This document shows positions 895-15,584 of a stretch of 54,305 nucleotides of DNA, piece after piece (the stretch's first letter is position 1; every line of letters starts with the position of its first letter). This DNA is from a virus (lineage: Duplodnaviria > Caudoviricetes). The position numbers were made by a program, and so were the translations under genes. The stretch is from positions 1-54,305 of the IMG/VR virus record IMGVR_UViG_3300034161_000026; one strand, written 5' to 3'. The notes under the pieces were generated by a model that saw only the letters and a list, made by a program, of their open reading frames with translations, had not been told where the DNA came from and ran no database searches.

Positions 895-1166
895 TTATTA
901 ACTCCTTGGCGCCCACTGCGGGGCCGATTGTTATCCTCATTGCTAGCTTTTTCAATTGCCATCGACTCGATGTAAGCGTCTGCCCATGCGTCCAGTTCAA
1001 GCCGGTCAAAGGCAACACCCTGTTTTCCAATGGGGAATTCCCTGACGTGGGGGCGGACGGTGGTTTTGAATTCGGCACGGCACATGCCGAGATATGCAGG
1101 GGCATCCATAGCCCGAATGAAGCGTGGTGGGGTATCTGCTACCGCCGCCGCTCTTGTATTGGCCAT
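765..1166 (-). CDS. Excisionase-like DNA-binding protein
   Basis: PRFIRAMDAPAYLGM...FDRLELDAW pattern; immediately upstream of and overlapping int. Confidence 0.7.
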   Translation of the reverse strand: MANTRAAAVADTPPRFIRAMDAPAYLGMCRAEFKTTVRPHVREFPIGKQGVAFDRLELDAWADAYIESMAIEKASNEDNNRPRSGRQGVNKWREKPCPASTRGTAFGTSTKSSEVSDFKKALDQARGKKPSST

Positions 1167-1256
1167 GAGGGTTCCTCGAGCTGCCGTTACGGGCTGAATT
1201 ATTGAAAGGGGGGAGAGCGTTGCTGCGGGGGTTGGCTAGCCCCTGATCTGATCGAT

Positions 1257-1604
1257 TTAGCCTGTGCCGGGCTTAGTGATAGATTGGCTTTGGCGAGCAG
1301 GGAATGCCTCTCCTTCCCACCTCCCGGGTTTGCCGCGGATAGCGCCATGGTGTCCATAGCAGTGGGGTTTTTTACTGGCAAAGAGTTTCTCGCAAGCCTC
1401 AAACAACGCAGCCTCACCTTCAATTGCGATCAATTCCTGCCCTGCCATCGAGCCAACCTGAATCCATCCCGACTTGTCGCGGCCATAGTTTTCAGTCTTG
1501 AACAGTCGATAACGGTTCCGGTGTCCGGTGTTGGGTGATGAGCTCTCGGTGTTCAGGTAGAAGTGAACGCCAGCCTGATGGACCTGCAGGGTCGTTTTAG
1601 CCAT
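1257..1604 (-). CDS. Hypothetical phage early protein
   Basis: 115-aa ORF in the leftward operon. Confidence 0.6.
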   Translation of the reverse strand: MAKTTLQVHQAGVHFYLNTESSSPNTGHRNRYRLFKTENYGRDKSGWIQVGSMAGQELIAIEGEAALFEACEKLFASKKPHCYGHHGAIRGKPGRWEGEAFPARQSQSITKPGTG

Positions 1605-1782
1605 TGCGCACCTCTGTTCCAGGCACCGAGCGAAGATTCAGCAGCTTGATGCCGCAGGCCCTAGCTAGCTCTTGTAGATCTCGCACTGTGGTCTGCTCGC
1701 GTTTCATCGCCATGCCTAGATCTATAAGGCGCTGGCCGAACTCCGCGAACTCGCTTGATTGGTTCGGTGCTTGAGTGGTCAA
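1597..1782 (-). CDS. Hypothetical phage early protein
   Basis: 61-aa ORF with AGAGGA RBS, overlapping the next gene. Confidence 0.55.
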   Translation of the reverse strand: MTTQAPNQSSEFAEFGQRLIDLGMAMKREQTTVRDLQELARACGIKLLNLRSVPGTEVRNG

Positions 1783-1910
1783 TGCATGTCCTCTCTGTTA
1801 ATGGCTGCCTACAAGGCAGTTTCTCCAAGGCGAGCAAAGGCCCGCCGCGTTGTTGGCGTTCGCAAAAAATGATGGAGGCTCTGGGTTTGCCGTGAGGCAA
1901 ATGAGGAGTG

Positions 1911-1972
1911 ATGCAAAATTAGCAAAAGCTAAATAATTAATCAATACAAATTGCTAAATTAATATTTGCTAA
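1911..1972 (-). promoter_or_regulatory. PL-like promoter with three repressor operators (OL)
   Basis: 14-mers TTAGCAAAAGCTAA (1919-1932), ATACAAATTGCTAA and TTAATATTTGCTAA; minus-strand TTGATT-N17-TAATTT; same motif occurs between cI and cro. Confidence 0.75.
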
Positions 1973-9302: not shown

Positions 9303-10202
9303 GTGGCACTACTCAGTAACTCTATACGTGCTCACTCTGAGCTGCCTGATTGGTTTGACCTGAAAAATTACAAATTTCTAAGTGATCTTGATAGTGCAGG
9401 TTGGTATGAGCAACTCTTTGCAAGAGAGCAATTGTTTCTTTTGATTAAACTCAGAAGTGACAAAAGTAAGATGCCTGATGAGTCATCACTAAGCTTTAAG
9501 ATGGCGCGCGAGATATGGAGTTCGGCTAAGGTTTCATTCAAAAACTCTGAAGTTTTATCGGCAGCGTGTGGCTATGATGGTGCTAACAGTCGCGTTAGTT
9601 CTAGCTACTCTCGCTCGGTTCACTCATTAACATATCGGGAGTATCTGCAAGAGGGGGATAAGATAAAGGATGAGCAAAAGCTAAATGCGGATTTGTGGTG
9701 GGAGAATATTAAAAGTGATCGCTTGGATGTTGCCGATCCGGCTATAAGGCTATCTCGAAAAGTTATGGGGTTTATCGATTCTCCGCTCTATATTTCGCAA
9801 AAATTTACAGCGACTCGAGCAGTGGCAGAAATCGACTTGACCATGCCGGATGCTATGTTGGTAGCGTCTTTTAAAACTTGGTTATCTGATACAAGGGCTG
9901 ATTTCTGTTTGGCAGCTCCTACGCAATATCGTCGACTGGATTTTGCTTCCTGGTGTCGAGTTGGTGTCTTGCCTTATATCGACCTCACGTCTTGGGCCGA
10001 GCTTTCAGGTAGGAAAATTCCGAACAGGGTAATGGCAAATACCATTTTTCCGACAGGCGAGGGTGGTGAGGAAACCATTAGGAAGACGACCGCCCCTCTT
10101 GCTCTAGAAATGATAGGTCGTGGGGAGTATTCAGATAGGACCATTCTCGACACGCTACTGGCCGTCGCCGCTCTTGATGGTGGAGTCGTAGAGGTTGGTT
10201 AA
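9303..10202 (+). CDS. DUF6387-like protein (type found in integrative elements and satellites)
   Basis: LPDWFDLKNY...W..QL..R, IDL..PD..L...FK.WL, VLPYIDL..W motifs recognised from memory. Confidence 0.6.
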   Translation: MALLSNSIRAHSELPDWFDLKNYKFLSDLDSAGWYEQLFAREQLFLLIKLRSDKSKMPDESSLSFKMAREIWSSAKVSFKNSEVLSAACGYDGANSRVSSSYSRSVHSLTYREYLQEGDKIKDEQKLNADLWWENIKSDRLDVADPAIRLSRKVMGFIDSPLYISQKFTATRAVAEIDLTMPDAMLVASFKTWLSDTRADFCLAAPTQYRRLDFASWCRVGVLPYIDLTSWAELSGRKIPNRVMANTIFPTGEGGEETIRKTTAPLALEMIGRGEYSDRTILDTLLAVAALDGGVVEVG

Positions 10203-10537
10203 TTCGGAAGACTTTACGTCTCGATTTTTTCCGGAAAAAAGATGGCCCTTTTGAGCGCCTTCCAATTGCTAGTTTTGTGTGAATAATTGGGAACCATCGT
10301 AACCACAGAAGCTCCGAGAGGCGCACGATGGCCATATCTGTTCCAATTTTTTCCCAGGCATTTTTCGCCAGCTATCGTCGTATTACTCTTCAGCATTCAG
10401 ATAGATTGCGATTCAAAAAAACGATCGGAAGTAACCAATTCCCCACTCCCCCGATCTTGCCGGCGAGTGCAGGGCGAATACTGCAAAGATGGCAGAGCTT
10501 TAATGGGATTCGCGGCGGTAGAGGCTATATAACTTCA

Positions 10538-11047
10538 TTAGGACTGATTTTCAGAGTCGTCGACGATCTTGATGTTTGTGCCAAACATAAGGCGCGCAAG
10601 CATCATGTAAGTCCCAGCGGTCGACTTGTCCCCCGATGCCGTAGCCTCTTTAACGATCTCAATGAACTTCTTTTCGGCCCGGTTTGTAATGTACTCCTCA
10701 AATGGTACTCCGGCGGCCTCGGCCTCACTTTTAGCCTGCTTCGCCTCCTCCGTATCCATTAACAATGCCAAATCATTGAGCATGCGCTGCCTGGTCTTTG
10801 TCGGAGGGTCAGTGGGTAGGGGGCCTCCCACAATGACGCGTAGACGTTGCTTTGGGGTTAGGTCGTCTGGCTTGACGCCAAGCGCCGCGGCCAACTTGAG
10901 CAGCACGGTTTTTCTTGGGCTTGCTTGGCCTGACTCGTACCGCGATATCTGCGATGGAGTAATTCCGATGGCATCGGCAAGTTGTTGCTGTGTAAGGTTT
11001 TTCTCACTCCTTAACGAAATGAGTTTTGAAGCGAAATCGTTGGACAT
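10538..11047 (-). CDS. XRE-family HTH regulator (Mnt-equivalent position)
   Basis: LRSEKNLTQQQLADAIGITPSQISRYESG. Confidence 0.85.
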   Translation of the reverse strand: MSNDFASKLISLRSEKNLTQQQLADAIGITPSQISRYESGQASPRKTVLLKLAAALGVKPDDLTPKQRLRVIVGGPLPTDPPTKTRQRMLNDLALLMDTEEAKQAKSEAEAAGVPFEEYITNRAEKKFIEIVKEATASGDKSTAGTYMMLARLMFGTNIKIVDDSENQS

Positions 11048-11086
11048 GTCGATCCCCTGTACGTCCCTAGAAGCGTACAGCAAACG

Positions 11087-11144
11087 CACAAAAAGCAAAA
11101 ATTGTTTGACGAGGTCACAAAAAGCACTAAACTCACAAAACGCA
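11087..11144 (+). promoter_or_regulatory. Pant-like promoter with three direct-repeat operators
   Basis: TTGACG-N16-TAAACT (11106-11133); CACAAAAAGCA at 11087 and 11116, CACAAAACGCA at 11134. Confidence 0.7.
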
Positions 11145-11158
11145 AACAAGGAGGCACC

Positions 11159-11323
11159 ATGAAGACCTTAAAAATCACCACCGCCGTCAGAATGCTCTGT
11201 GACATGAGGGAAAAGCTTGAAGGGAAGGCTGCCGAAAACGGTCGCAGTCTGAGCGGCGAAATTATCTTTCGTCTGAGGAAGTCTCTAGAGCAGGAGATGG
11301 ATCGTGGAAAACAGCAGGCATAA
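11159..11323 (+). CDS. Arc-family ribbon-helix-helix repressor
   Basis: VRM..DMREKLEGKAAENGRSLSGEIIFRL; AAGGAGG RBS. Confidence 0.85.
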   Translation: MKTLKITTAVRMLCDMREKLEGKAAENGRSLSGEIIFRLRKSLEQEMDRGKQQA

Positions 11324-11386
11324 AAAAACCCCAGCGCCGGCCAGCGCTGAGGTTTGGATAACGTCAATCTTCGAGGAAAAACGTCA
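11322..11386 (-). ncRNA. Predicted sar-like antisense RNA covering the RBS of the DUF3077/antirepressor unit
   Basis: Minus-strand TTGAGT-N16-TATGCT (11420-11393); minus-strand hairpin plus T-run at 11355-11322. Confidence 0.55.
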
Positions 11387-11697
11387 TGGATAAGCATACC
11401 GCAGTAAATGAAAAACTCAATGCTGGCGCTATCTGTATGCCGGTCACGGTGGAGTTGTCTTTCACGATCTGCAACCCGGACCAGGAACACTTGCTTGCTG
11501 TACGGCCCGGGATCCCAGTAACGGATGCCCTTGAAGAGGCGTCCTGCATTCTTAGTGAATTGAAATCATCACTTGAGGCAGCTGCGATGGGGGTCGATGG
11601 AATCACGCCTAATCAGGCATGGCTCCTGTTTCGGGCTGCGAATACAGCGAAGGCCATCGTCGACTCGACGCATGAAGGCCTGGAGAAAGCCCAATGA
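11386..11697 (+). CDS. DUF3077-like protein
   Basis: F..CN......LAVRPGIPVTDALEEASCIL; ATGA overlap with ant. Confidence 0.65.
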   Translation: MDKHTAVNEKLNAGAICMPVTVELSFTICNPDQEHLLAVRPGIPVTDALEEASCILSELKSSLEAAAMGVDGITPNQAWLLFRAANTAKAIVDSTHEGLEKAQ

Positions 11698-12494
11698 ATC
11701 TCTCATTGGGCGAACACGGGCGGACTTCTTGCGCAGCGGCAAGCCACCAGCTTGCTGAGAACTCACCTCGCGCTGTGACCATGAGCAGTTCCGAAATCGC
11801 AGAGTTGACCGGGAAGCTCCATGCTCATGTCCTTCGGGACATCCGCACGATGCTTGAGGCATTGGAAGATGATCCAGTTTTGGATCATGTCCGTGAGGAC
11901 AAGGATGGTCGTGGGTATACCGTTAATTTCCATATGGATCGGGAGCTCACGGAAACTCTTCTGACTGGCTATAGCATCCCACTTCGTCGCAAGGTTGTTC
12001 GTCGCTTGCACGAACTCGAGGAGGCCAACGCTAAACCGGCCTTCGACTATGCGGCCGCGTTGAGCGATCCCCGAACACTCTTGGCGCTGCTCACCGAAAA
12101 TGTGACGAAGGTCGTCGCGCTGGAGGCGGACAATATCGAGCTTTCGAAAGAGAACCACTTGCTGGAAGTGAAGGTTGAGCAAGACGCGCCGAAGGTCGCC
12201 TTCCACGACATGGTCACCGTGTCGCACAAGACCTACAACGCTGCCCAGGCCGCAAAGGTTATCGGCACCGGCCGCACTCGGTTGTTGCAGTTCATGCGCC
12301 AGAAGGGATGGGTGACCAGGACCAACGAGCCATACCAGGCGAAGATCGAGGCAGGCCTGCTTGATGTGAAGCTGGGAACCTTTGAGCATCCAATCGACGG
12401 CACGATCCCAACGTGCTCGACGCTAATCACCGGCAAGGGACTGAGCAAACTTCAGGCTATGTGGCAGAGCAGGGAAGAGGACTTGCTGAAGTAG
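11694..12494 (+). CDS. Phage antirepressor (Rha N-terminal plus KilAC/ANT C-terminal domain)
   Basis: MSSSEIAELTGKLHAHVLRDIR; APKVAFHD...N.PYQ..I..G...TLITGKG. Confidence 0.88.
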   Translation: MNLSLGEHGRTSCAAASHQLAENSPRAVTMSSSEIAELTGKLHAHVLRDIRTMLEALEDDPVLDHVREDKDGRGYTVNFHMDRELTETLLTGYSIPLRRKVVRRLHELEEANAKPAFDYAAALSDPRTLLALLTENVTKVVALEADNIELSKENHLLEVKVEQDAPKVAFHDMVTVSHKTYNAAQAAKVIGTGRTRLLQFMRQKGWVTRTNEPYQAKIEAGLLDVKLGTFEHPIDGTIPTCSTLITGKGLSKLQAMWQSREEDLLK

Positions 12495-12502
12495 CAGGAT
12501 AG

Positions 12503-12527
12503 AAGCCCGGCCTAGTGCCGGGCTTTT
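12503..12527. terminator. Terminator between convergent ant and cI
   Basis: AAGCCCGGC-CTAGT-GCCGGGCTTTT. Confidence 0.8.
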
Positions 12528-12539
12528 GCTATCTGGGGT

Positions 12540-12965
12540 TTATGGCTTTTCGGAGTTGGCTTTTTCGAGCAGACCGGCGATGCCTTCCAGCAGCACCAGG
12601 TCCGACTCCTTCAGCTTCCCCTTTGCCGCGGCTCTGGCCAGCTTATCGATGATGGTGATCGCCCTAGGTGAGGCGGTCCCTAGCATCGCTTGGTAAGCAG
12701 GGGATTGTTCACGAACGACCTCATGACGGGTGAACTCGCCCTCGATGACGTTTGAACCGTAGTTGCCCGGGTTAACCAGGACGCCAGGCGCCAAGCCGAT
12801 CTTCTGCTCAAGATTAAGCGCAGCTTTCTCGCCCAGGCCTCGATGCCCATTGAGGATCTGGGACAAATAGGACGCGTCCAGATCGTGCTGGTCGGCGAAT
12901 TCTTTCTGGCTGAGTTGGCCGATTACGCGCCGCAGCGCGTCGACCCGAAGAGTTTTCATATCCAT
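12540..12965 (-). CDS. cI: CI-like repressor without an S24 peptidase domain
   Basis: HTH SQKEFADQHDLDASYLSQILNGHRGLGEKAA; divergent from cro; 141 aa. Confidence 0.8.
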   Translation of the reverse strand: MDMKTLRVDALRRVIGQLSQKEFADQHDLDASYLSQILNGHRGLGEKAALNLEQKIGLAPGVLVNPGNYGSNVIEGEFTRHEVVREQSPAYQAMLGTASPRAITIIDKLARAAAKGKLKESDLVLLEGIAGLLEKANSEKP

Positions 12966-12985
12966 AGGCGAATAGTGATCCCGCG

Positions 12986-13042
12986 TTAGCAAACAGTAAA
13001 TTATAAAAAGCTATTGCTATGTAAATTAGCAAAGCGTAATCT
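12986..13042 (+). promoter_or_regulatory. OR operators and PR promoter
   Basis: TTAGCAAACAGTAA, AAAGCTATTGCTAT, TTAGCAAAGCGTAA; TTGCTA-N17-TAATCT. Confidence 0.75.
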
Positions 13043-13063
13043 GAAGCTCTTTCGGAGATCACC

Positions 13064-13309
13064 ATGACGCTACTCGACCTCATCCGCTCCTTGGAGCCGG
13101 CCCAACTGGATGCTCTAGCACAGCGAAGTGGCACCAGTGTCGGCAACCTCAAACAGATTGCCTACGGGTATCGCCTGGCTGGTCCTGGACTCGCCATCAA
13201 TCTTGATCGCGAGTCGGGGAGGGCGGTGACGTGTGAAGAGCTGCGTCCTGACATCGACTGGGCTTACCTGCGTAATTCATCCACCAGCTCCGAGCAATCT
13301 GCCGCCTGA
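13064..13309 (+). CDS. cro: Cro/YdaS-like regulator
   Basis: GTSVGNLKQIAYG...VTCEELRPDIDW. Confidence 0.85.
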   Translation: MTLLDLIRSLEPAQLDALAQRSGTSVGNLKQIAYGYRLAGPGLAINLDRESGRAVTCEELRPDIDWAYLRNSSTSSEQSAA

Positions 13310-13376
13310 TCCGATGAGCAAAGTTTCGCTCAGCGACAGGATGTGCTGCCACGACAACCGCCAAGAGGTTTCCCGA

Positions 13377-13799
13377 ATGGAACAAGTACATCGCGCAATT
13401 CATGAGGCAGTGCTTGATGCGGGGCCAAAGCAATTGGCTCACCTGATGGGCATGAGCCATACCGCGCTGCTCAACCGCAGTAACCCGAATGACGACTCGC
13501 ATCGGCTCAACCTGGAGCAGTTCTTACAAATTCTGGTGCACAGCGAGAATCCTGAACCACTGCAGTTACTGGCGAGAGCCTTGGGGTACGAGTTGGTGCC
13601 AGTGGTCAAGCCGGAAGGGAAAAGCCTGGTTCAAGCGCTGGTGCACTTGGCTGCTGAGTCTGGGGATGTTTCCCGCGCGGTCCATGACGCCATGGCTGAT
13701 GGACGCGTAACGCAGATCGAGAAGGCCGGTATCCAGAAAGAAATCGGCCATGTGCGGCAGAGTTTGCTGGTGCTGGAAGAGTCGGTGAAGGTTGCGTGA
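13377..13799 (+). CDS. cII: CII-family regulatory protein
   Basis: LA.LMGMS...L.N..NPN...H.L; E.GDV.......DG.VT..E. Confidence 0.8.
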   Translation: MEQVHRAIHEAVLDAGPKQLAHLMGMSHTALLNRSNPNDDSHRLNLEQFLQILVHSENPEPLQLLARALGYELVPVVKPEGKSLVQALVHLAAESGDVSRAVHDAMADGRVTQIEKAGIQKEIGHVRQSLLVLEESVKVA

Positions 13800-13945
13800 A
13801 CACGCTGTCAGGACGGGACTTGCATTATTTCAAACGGGTGGATGATGAAATTCGCCCGGTGCAGAAAGCAACAAACCCGGCGGGAACCGGGCTTATCAAA
13901 TCGTCCTGTGCAACCAGGACAACACATCTCGTAGAGGTATTTATC

Positions 13946-14326
13946 ATGGCACACGCAATTGGTGGTGAACAAGCTCGTCGTCTGATGTTGATCAATTATC
14001 CGCTGATTCGTACGCGCGACGACCTGAGTTTTACAGCCCGTGATGTTCAGGGGCGCCTGGTCAATTGGACACGGAACAACCCCGGCGTCGCTGCCGACTG
14101 GGAAAAGGGTATGACTTTCTTCGATGAAGAAGTCAGCGCGTTGGCAGCCTTTGACGAAACAGAAGCCTTCCATGCAATTCAGTTCGCAATTCTGGGTATG
14201 GGCGGTCGCTGCACGAACCTTGAAATTGGTTTTGCTCAACGCGTCGCTGCAGCCGCGGTGTTAGGGCTGCGCGCCATGCGCGATGGTGAAACCGATTTTG
14301 TGCCTTCCGATCGGGAGGACAACTGA
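13946..14326 (+). CDS. Hypothetical phage protein
   Basis: GAGG RBS, ATG at 13946. Confidence 0.6.
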   Translation: MAHAIGGEQARRLMLINYPLIRTRDDLSFTARDVQGRLVNWTRNNPGVAADWEKGMTFFDEEVSALAAFDETEAFHAIQFAILGMGGRCTNLEIGFAQRVAAAAVLGLRAMRDGETDFVPSDREDN

Positions 14327-14810: not shown

Positions 14811-15584
14811 ATGAGCCTGTTGTTCAACTTCCGTCCCCTGGTTATCAATCCGCAGCTTGCAGAACGCATTGGGCTGAACGAAGCAATAGTGCTGCAGCAA
14901 CTTAAATATTGGTTGAACGAGACCGAGTCAGGTGTAGAGCACGAGGGGCGTCGCTGGGTTTACAACACTGTCGAGCAGTGGCAAAGGCAATTCCCCTTCT
15001 GGTCGGCGGATACTGTCAAACGGGCGCTCACTTCGCTCCAAAAGCAGGGTTTGGTTATGGTCGAAAAGTTAGCCAAGGCCAAGCATGACCAGACGAACCA
15101 CTACACCATCAACTATCAATCGGCTGCCCTGGTCGATCAGGGCATTTTGCACCAATCAGAAGAGGGCAAATTGCCCCAATCGGTTGGGGCAGGATGCCCT
15201 GATCTTCTTACAGAGATTACAACAAAGACTACTGCAGAGATTTCTTCGTGCAATTCGGGCGATCCGCTGAATGGGTTTGAACAATTTTGGAAGCTGTACC
15301 CGAAGAAGAAGGGGCGTAAGGACGCGGCTAAGGCTTGGTCGAAGCTGAAGCCGGACGACGAGTTACACCAGACTCTGATCGCCGCCTTGGGTAGTCACTG
15401 CATTTCCGAGGACTGGACCAAGGACGGCGGGCGCTACATCCCGAACGCCGCCACTTGGCTGAACGGTGAACGGTGGGACGACGTACTTAAGCCCGCTGGT
15501 GCCAGCTCAAGCTCTGCCTTTCACGGTCTGCCGAACCATACGCAAGAGATGTATCCGGAGGTGAAGAATGGCGCGAATTTCTAA
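14811..15584 (+). CDS. Replication initiator (O-like)
   Basis: IGLNEAIVLQQLKYW...WVYNT; FEQFWKLYPKK...ATWLNGERW. Confidence 0.85.
   Translation: MSLLFNFRPLVINPQLAERIGLNEAIVLQQLKYWLNETESGVEHEGRRWVYNTVEQWQRQFPFWSADTVKRALTSLQKQGLVMVEKLAKAKHDQTNHYTINYQSAALVDQGILHQSEEGKLPQSVGAGCPDLLTEITTKTTAEISSCNSGDPLNGFEQFWKLYPKKKGRKDAAKAWSKLKPDDELHQTLIAALGSHCISEDWTKDGGRYIPNAATWLNGERWDDVLKPAGASSSSAFHGLPNHTQEMYPEVKNGANF
15140..15245 (+). repeat. Candidate origin iterons inside the initiator gene
   Basis: GGGCATTTTGCACCAATC, GGGCAAATTGCCCCAATC and GGGCAGGATGCCCTGATC at 23-24-bp spacing, followed by CAGAGATT repeats. Confidence 0.65.

Follow-up and report, generated by a model that had tools for sequence, protein, structure and literature searches.

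A putative sar-like antisense RNA gene in an antirepressor module of a temperate Pseudomonas phage

Introduction

Antirepressor synthesis in temperate phages can be held down by small antisense RNAs. In phages P1 and P7, the immI region specifies the c4 RNA. Transcribed from the same strand as its target, and upstream of it within one transcript, c4 pairs via short complementary segments. The target is the leader gene icd, to which translation of ant is coupled. By pairing around a ribosome-binding site, c4 prevents antirepressor synthesis (PMC12197685). The sar RNA of phage P22 also works through base pairing (PMC12197685). In the P22 record, arc occupies positions 14861-15022, sar lies on the minus strand at 15021-15090 with its terminator at 15021-15058, and ant begins at 15091. 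The sar promoter (15097-15125) corresponds to ant +7 to +35, and its -10 hexamer TATACT is preceded by TGC. Here we describe a similar arrangement in a stretch of viral DNA of 54,305 nucleotides (nt) (Duplodnaviria; Caudoviricetes; IMG/VR record IMGVR_UViG_3300034161_000026, positions 1 to 54,305), referred to below as the window. We consider it likely that a small RNA gene of the same type as P22 sar occupies 11322-11387 on the minus strand, and that its cis-antisense product most likely prevents translation of an antirepressor unit. An RNA of about 65 nt had been proposed at this place in an initial annotation, which named P22 sar as the analogous system and covariation across related loci as a means of examining the proposal.

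Results

A predicted antisense RNA between arc and the antirepressor unit

The element lies between a gene for an Arc-like ribbon-helix-helix (RHH) repressor (11159-11323, plus strand; Pfam Arc, PF03869, 1.5e-8) and a gene for a DUF3077 protein of 103 residues (11386-11697, plus strand; Pfam PF11275, 2e-7). The latter is the opening gene of the antirepressor unit and is separated from arc by a spacer of 62 nt. Its stop codon overlaps the start codon of the antirepressor gene ant (11694-12494, plus strand; Pfam ANT, 1.2e-20, and Phage_pRha, 1.7e-8), whose product carries Phage_pRha and ANT/KilAC domains, in an ATGA at 11694-11697. On the minus strand, within the first codons of the DUF3077 gene, the two hexamers given in the initial annotation can be read from the sequence exactly as described. 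These are a -35-like TTGAGT (11415-11420; ACTCAA on the plus strand, in codons 10-12) and a -10-like TATGCT (11393-11398; AGCATA on the plus strand, in codons 3-5, +8 to +13 from the ATG), separated by a spacer of 16 nt (11399-11414).

At the arc end of the spacer we found an intrinsic terminator hairpin on the minus strand (11326-11355), whose 13 pairs include 7 G-C pairs and whose loop measures 4 nt. Its core helix joins 11353-11343 with 11338-11328. The T-run comprises 7 T (11328-11322) when three T within the stem are counted, the plus strand side having only TTT, and the arc stop codon (11321-11323) falls inside this run. The terminator at 11355-11322 of the initial annotation was thus confirmed, with its pairs at 11355-11326 and its T residues reaching down to 11322. 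This hairpin was the strongest of 6 terminator-like sites at 9500-14000, a region for which shuffled sequences lead one to expect 4.8 ± 1.8 sites.

From the geometry of promoter and terminator, the RNA is predicted to begin at 11385-11387 and to end within the T-run, at 11322-11325, which corresponds to a length of about 63-65 nt. The minus-strand sequence 11386-11318 folds in prediction as two hairpins with an energy of -28.0 kcal/mol (z = -3.98), a value equalled by none of 200 shuffled sequences. Folding and alignment both indicate a 5′ stem-loop (11360-11385, minus strand), in which a 6-bp helix (11385-11380 with 11365-11360) closes a 14-nt loop with the anti-Shine-Dalgarno sequence CCUC; the terminator hairpin follows. 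The presumed target site in the mRNA, read from the sequence at 11373-11388 of the plus strand, contains the Shine-Dalgarno (SD) sequence GAGG (11373-11376) and the ATG of the DUF3077 gene (11386-11388). Being encoded in cis, the predicted RNA is fully complementary to this site. Direct AACGTC repeats flank the SD sequence. The whole layout agrees to within 1 nt with the arc-sar-ant layout annotated in P22, which was established by experiment, and the analogy to sar drawn in the initial annotation holds in this respect.

Related loci and compensatory changes

A blastn search of a phage collection with the region returned only Pseudomonas phage Medea1 (two records). Among viral contigs, 4 loci were found with the DUF3077 protein as query and 40 with an Arc alignment, and genome contigs yielded 3 Pseudomonas loci with a DUF3077 alignment. 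Of the 40 loci, 38 carry an A-run and a G+C-rich hairpin directly after the Arc stop codon. Loci L046 and L047, without a hairpin after the Arc-like frame, were dropped before counting, and L048 was used only in the model search and the promoter survey. A start codon was assigned in 43 loci, and these comprise 35 distinct sequences of the RNA region. In these Pseudomonas phage and prophage loci all the structural elements of the initial annotation are kept as one unit with constant geometry, namely the promoter in the first codons, the predicted RNA of about 65 nt over the SD sequence and the minus-strand terminator at the arc end. The gene after the RNA is a DUF3077 gene in 19 of the 43; in the other 24 a gene of the Bro-N, Phage_pRha, P22_AR_N or ORF6N type follows directly. 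The downstream gene therefore spans five Pfam families, with the cassette unchanged.

This distribution bears on an open reading frame (ORF) of 80 residues on the minus strand (11364-11606), antisense to the DUF3077 gene, which might be a real gene whose mRNA the terminator ends. The frame stops 9 nt ahead of the hairpin, and open antisense frames of 61-74 residues are also present in L002-L005. Long open antisense frames are often found in G+C-rich coding DNA. The terminator-leader-promoter cassette is nevertheless present in the 24 loci that have no DUF3077 gene and hence no such ORF, and the length from ATG to stop ranges from 61 to 80 residues among close relatives. As the cassette persists without the frame and its length is variable, we rejected the ORF as a gene and find a protein-coding explanation hardly credible.

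Concerning the terminator, 90.6% of the cells of its 11-pair helix are paired across the 35 aligned sequences, and 7 of the 11 pairs change on both sides. Neither the observed pairing nor the covariation score was reached in any of 500 shuffles, and shifting the pairing partners by 1-3 columns lowered the pairing to 33-53%. The covariation named in the initial annotation was thus found. As for the 5′ hairpin, MAFFT alone misaligned it across leader types, and RNAalifold applied to the MAFFT alignment recovered the terminator only. The 5′ helix was for this reason counted on an alignment fitted to a covariance model, R1, built from 14 Pseudomonas sequences only. On this R1-fitted alignment, helix 1 displays double-sided changes in all 6 pairs with 94.8% of cells paired, and both helices taken jointly have 92.4% of cells paired and double changes in 13 of 17 pairs, which none of 500 shuffles reached. 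Every leader type has a stem-loop that starts beside the start codon and holds the anti-SD sequence (UCCU or CCUC) in its apical part. A further leader type occurs in L058 (G056) at about 1501-1566, with the same two-hairpin plan and CCUC in the first loop and with a different helix sequence. The family is therefore wider than the types aligned here.

These alignments also bear on the question of which strand the structure serves. The leader and first codons might act in the mRNA itself, as a hairpin sequestering the ribosome-binding site or as a site for a translational repressor or Arc, with no antisense RNA involved. The leader hairpin does form in the plus strand as well, in a weaker form with the SD sequence in its loop, and the AACGTC repeats on both sides of the SD sequence would suit such an element. 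The plus-strand fold of the 5′ region is, however, the weaker one in 32 of the 35 sequences, the exceptions being L014, L017 and L031. In 31 of 34 sequences, helix 1 has G.U as its outer pair, which becomes an A.C mismatch on the mRNA strand; as G.U pairs, the outer pairs form on the minus strand only. In the terminator helix, G.U cells number 50 on the minus strand versus 25 on the plus strand, and the plus strand has 84.1% of cells paired versus the 90.6% given above. The T-run is confined to the minus side in all 35 sequences, with a tail of 6-7 T per 8 nt versus 1-5 (mean 2.8) on the plus strand. A plus-strand element would also leave unexplained the pair of hexamers at a spacing of 16-17 nt and the agreement in position with the P22 sar promoter. 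Taking these points together, we judge an element acting in the mRNA alone to be very unlikely.

Relationship to P22 sar

The R1 model finds all the related loci and matches the window at 11321-11388 on the minus strand with 84.8 bits. In the 41.7-kb genome of P22 its best match is sar (15026-15093, minus strand, 26.1 bits), recovered at full length with both helices; the E-values, which are rough, are 9.7e-5 for P22 alone and 5.5e-4 in a search of 238 kb. The second match in P22 (L049, 32274-32351, minus strand) is the promoter-terminator region of oop and is not significant (14.2 bits, E 0.14). Of 151 sampled Pseudomonas genomes, 13 gave a match to R1 at E ≤ 0.001, one of them (G101) being an unpublished genome. 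Inspection of these sequences by eye indicated the two-hairpin anatomy in about nine, whereas four (L059-L062) look like plain terminators.

The Rfam sar model was also applied. Its consensus consists of a 6-bp 5′ helix, a 16-nt loop holding the anti-SD sequence, a short linker and the terminator hairpin; the corresponding parts of the element in the window are a helix of 6 bp, a loop of 14 nt containing CCUC, a linker and a terminator. In 4 of 15 related loci the model gave full-length matches at the element and on the right strand, with 21.7-25.4 bits, which is under the gathering score of 43; P22 itself, as the control, scored 97.8 bits. Each model thus detects members of the other group, though weakly. 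An Rfam scan of the window returned chance-level matches only, among them Esr41 with 19.7 bits, which covers only the terminator. The element is not a member of RF00262 as curated. With the architecture of sar and a faint kinship in sequence, it is probably a distant relative of P22 sar.

The putative antisense promoter

The promoter was surveyed in 38 distinct upstream regions, comprising 36 of the Pseudomonas type, L048 and P22. A TAnnnT hexamer was found in 37 of them, and in 35 the distance between it and the first base of helix 1 is exactly 8 nt. This distance stays at 8 nt even when the start codon is placed 3 nt further in, and the geometry therefore seems to belong to the transcription unit and not to translation. 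The spacer to the best -35 hexamer measures 16 nt in 33 regions and 17 nt in the remaining 5. A -35 hexamer matching the consensus in at least 4 of 6 positions is present in 31, and a TG extension ahead of the -10 hexamer in 24. All 15 distinct regions of the DUF3077 type that retain TTGAGT have it with the 16-nt spacer. The coding sequence is constrained over the same stretch. Among 17 distinct DUF3077 genes, positions with the same residue also share the codon with a frequency of 0.97 over codons 1-7 and 0.95 over codons 8-14, compared with 0.41-0.76 in the thirteen later blocks. As the leaders upstream of these genes fall into different types, a single block recently shared among them does not explain this conservation.

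These data can be set against the simpler idea of a terminator only, in which the hairpin would insulate the locus from stray minus-strand transcription, such as read-through from the convergent cI-like gene (12540-12992) or spurious antisense starts within ant, and the hexamers would be a by-product of coding. A hairpin at 12504-12524 separates the 3′ ends of ant (12494) and the cI-like gene (12540). Because only its plus side carries a T-run, it offers no clear stop to minus-strand transcription, and read-through into ant is conceivable; the hexamers of the window, taken by themselves, are also at chance level. The cassette is, however, kept beside other neighbours, being located in Medea1 between tail genes and rightward genes. 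The position of TAnnnT at 8 nt from helix 1 is shared by regions preceding five unrelated protein families, and synonymous sites are nearly frozen in codons 1-14 of the DUF3077 genes. An insulating terminator without a promoter of its own is, in our estimate, distinctly unlikely.

Several points nevertheless weigh against an antisense RNA of the sar type. The promoter of the window matches the consensus in only 8 of 12 positions, and 76 sites of this quality occur on both strands of the 54,305-base window, about 0.7 per kb per strand. The form TTGAGT-16-TATGCT, 8 of 12 and without a TG extension, is the weakest variant in the family and is the one always found with DUF3077. The energy asymmetry of the terminator is modest, the minus strand being the more stable in 23 of 35 sequences and the plus strand in 12. 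The covariation of helix 1 was counted on a model-fitted alignment, which leans toward the structure, and the R1 E-values are rough as a result of a shortened calibration. The likeness of R1 to sar is in part generic, consisting of a terminator plus an anti-SD sequence, and part of what R1 scores is common to short antisense RNAs with terminators. The Rfam sar model (RF00262) gave no match at E up to 10 in 10400-12700 of the window. Finally, a search of sequencing runs gave no RNA run for the locus, and the one partial match, presumably contigs, extends over 10500-11212 only, short of the element. As sites matching in 8 of 12 positions are common in the window, the case for the promoter rests on the comparison of related loci. 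Judged on its own letters, the promoter is not above chance, and its significance arises only via conservation in those loci. The sigma-70 assignment of the initial annotation consequently stands as regards hexamers and spacing kept among relatives, and not as a property of the window considered alone.

Predicted mode of action

Our preferred reading, repression by a sar-like RNA, can be outlined as follows. A sigma-70 promoter on the minus strand, inside codons 3-12 of the DUF3077 gene, would start transcription at about 11385-11387. The RNA would extend 63-65 nt leftwards and end at the intrinsic terminator that overlaps the arc stop codon. It would consist of the 5′ stem-loop, displaying the anti-SD sequence in its loop, and the terminator hairpin. 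On the rightward arc-DUF3077-ant mRNA it would pair with the leader and so block initiation of DUF3077 translation. That it would cover both the GAGG and the AUG follows from its perfect complementarity to 11322-11387 and from the analogy with P22 sar. Translation of ant would drop together with that of DUF3077 via the ATGA overlap, and the antirepressor would be kept silent during leaky or brief activity of the rightward promoter. The initial annotation had already pointed to this overlap, and we found it in 18 of 19 DUF3077 loci, the remaining one having TAATG. This retention supports translational coupling, with ant falling along with DUF3077.

The rightward transcript would start from a Pant-like promoter (TTGACG-16-TAAACT; 11106-11133, plus strand), which presumably drives arc, DUF3077 and ant. 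In the promoter scan it is the sole site with at least 9 of 12 consensus positions within 9500-14000; the antisense promoter is missing from that list because 8 of 12 is under the threshold of 9 of 12. The two promoters face each other at a distance of about 280 nt, and in P22 the sar promoter and Pant affect each other. A real minus-strand promoter might accordingly act mainly through collision of RNA polymerases or occlusion of the Pant-like promoter, the short RNA being a by-product, and none of the comparative data distinguish pairing of the RNA from the act of transcription. The structure of the RNA, on the other hand, appears to be under selection; the stem-loop with the anti-SD sequence is kept by compensatory changes and has G.U pairs that form on the minus strand only, and interference alone needs neither. 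P22 sar, moreover, operates by base pairing (PMC12197685). Collision with the facing promoter may add to the effect and is less likely to be the main one; as the sole explanation, with the RNA a mere by-product, we consider it unlikely.

Context of the element and modularity

Leftwards of arc, a divergent gene for an XRE-type helix-turn-helix repressor of 169 residues (10538-11047, minus strand; Pfam HTH_3, 9.3e-19) occupies the place of P22 mnt. Rightwards of ant, the convergent cI-like gene is followed by a cro-like gene. The region forms a secondary, immI-like immunity module in this temperate Pseudomonas phage, made up of an XRE repressor and, divergently from it, Arc, the predicted sar-like RNA, DUF3077 and Ant. 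Two sets of repeats are present near the Pant-like promoter. Three direct copies of CACAAAAAGCA, the third in the form CACAAAACGCA, are located upstream of, within and just past this promoter (11087-11097, 11116-11126 and 11134-11144), and are candidate operators for Arc or the XRE repressor. A 7-nt inverted repeat, CTGTACG/CGTACAG, seen by eye at 11057-11063 and 11074-11080 between the start of the XRE gene and the Pant-like promoter, is a second candidate operator.

A divergent repressor of the Mnt type, with an RHH fold, was not found in the window; by eye, L003 has an RHH-like protein at that place. The upstream regulators of L003 are others, namely an RHH-like protein of 176 residues (1156-1686, minus strand) and a small RHH-like protein (1696-1938, plus strand). 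From the terminator onward it carries the same RNA cassette and a DUF3077 gene. As L003 differs upstream and matches from the terminator on, the mosaic joint seems to lie at the terminator.

In scanned representatives of the four non-DUF3077 families, the Pfam domain begins at residues 14-23, past the N-terminal stretch that bears the promoter, and in the DUF3077 protein of the window the Pfam match begins at residue 24. An N-terminus resembling MSNNST, MTNNTT or MNNSTT over the first 6 codons is common to otherwise unrelated Bro-N, pRha, P22_AR_N and ORF6N proteins (L010, L001, L015, L020, L033 and L017). This shared stretch lies outside the Pfam domains and is what results when the antisense TGn plus -10 element is translated.

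A broader interpretation would regard the arc-terminator-hairpin-promoter unit as a portable regulatory cassette. Such a cassette would have captured at least five unrelated antirepressor-type families and would impose its promoter on their first 12-14 codons, seen as the shared N-terminal M-x-N/D-N/I-S/T-T outside the Pfam domains. For the DUF3077 lineage, this would make the true target of the RNA a new small helical-hairpin protein acting with or upstream of Ant, for example as a co-antirepressor or an anti-Arc factor. We regard this proposal as conceivable and rather doubtful. If true, the module would be a two-tier switch and not a plain copy of P22 immI. Concerning the DUF3077 protein, an AlphaFold2 model had a mean predicted local distance difference test score of 73.3, with a low-confidence N-terminal half and a confident helical hairpin at the C-terminus (residues 45-102). 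A Foldseek search of the Protein Data Bank with this model gave no match at E ≤ 0.001, and in the full-text literature searched the term DUF3077 occurs in only 2 papers, neither of which appears to concern phage.

Discussion

In the full-text literature searched, whose coverage lies outside subscription journals, no sar-like RNA of Pseudomonas phages is described. In the paper on Medea1, a term search gave 0 occurrences of antisense, antirepressor or Rha, and the Medea1 record has no RNA feature annotated at this place. Genome annotation is blank at the element because the public RNA family model misses the lineage. The feature is real and very probably a sar-type antisense RNA gene. The kind of switch is already known from P22 sar; what sets this variant apart is the host clade, a sequence below the threshold of the family model, the XRE partner repressor and the DUF3077 leader gene as the direct target.

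The arc-sar-ant switch is a textbook system of enterobacterial P22-like phages, and the proposed element would extend it to temperate phages and prophages of Pseudomonas. The element also provides what would be a clean case of the promoter of an RNA gene constraining the coding sequence of unrelated proteins, and it flags DUF3077 as a protein that may be under antirepressor-type control. For Pseudomonas phages considered for biocontrol, it marks a candidate element of lysis-lysogeny control that is easily overlooked.

Among known antisense RNAs, oop of lambdoid phages resembles the predicted RNA in being short and in having its own promoter and an intrinsic terminator. It differs in that it overlaps the 3′ end of cII and not a ribosome-binding site, and it has no link to arc or ant. 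The c4 RNA of P1 and P7 has in common with our proposal that a small RNA pairs around the ribosome-binding site of a leader gene with which ant is translationally coupled. Unlike the RNA predicted here, c4 does not come from a convergent cis-antisense gene whose own promoter lies inside the target.

Several features also separate the element from P22 sar. The host here is Pseudomonas, the sequence has diverged past the Rfam threshold, and the element is known from sequence alone. The direct target would be a DUF3077 gene coupled to ant, whereas in P22 it is ant itself. Mnt, the divergent RHH repressor of P22 immI, is replaced here by an XRE-type HTH_3 protein, and the terminator has a long U-run where that of P22 has a short tail. 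What the two systems share is an antisense RNA positioned between an Arc-family gene and an antirepressor operon, with its terminator at the arc stop codon and its 5′ end at the start codon of the target; in the window the RNA and its ends are predicted ones. The promoter is located at +7 or +8 to +35 of the target, the hexamers of the window lying at +8 to +13 and +30 to +35. In most of the Pseudomonas relatives the -10 hexamer follows TGn, as in the TGC TATACT of P22, and the related Pseudomonas locus L015 has an antirepressor of the P22_AR_N type. Both RNAs fall within 63-69 nt, as annotated in P22 and as predicted here, and both consist of two hairpins, the first of which holds the anti-SD sequence in its loop.

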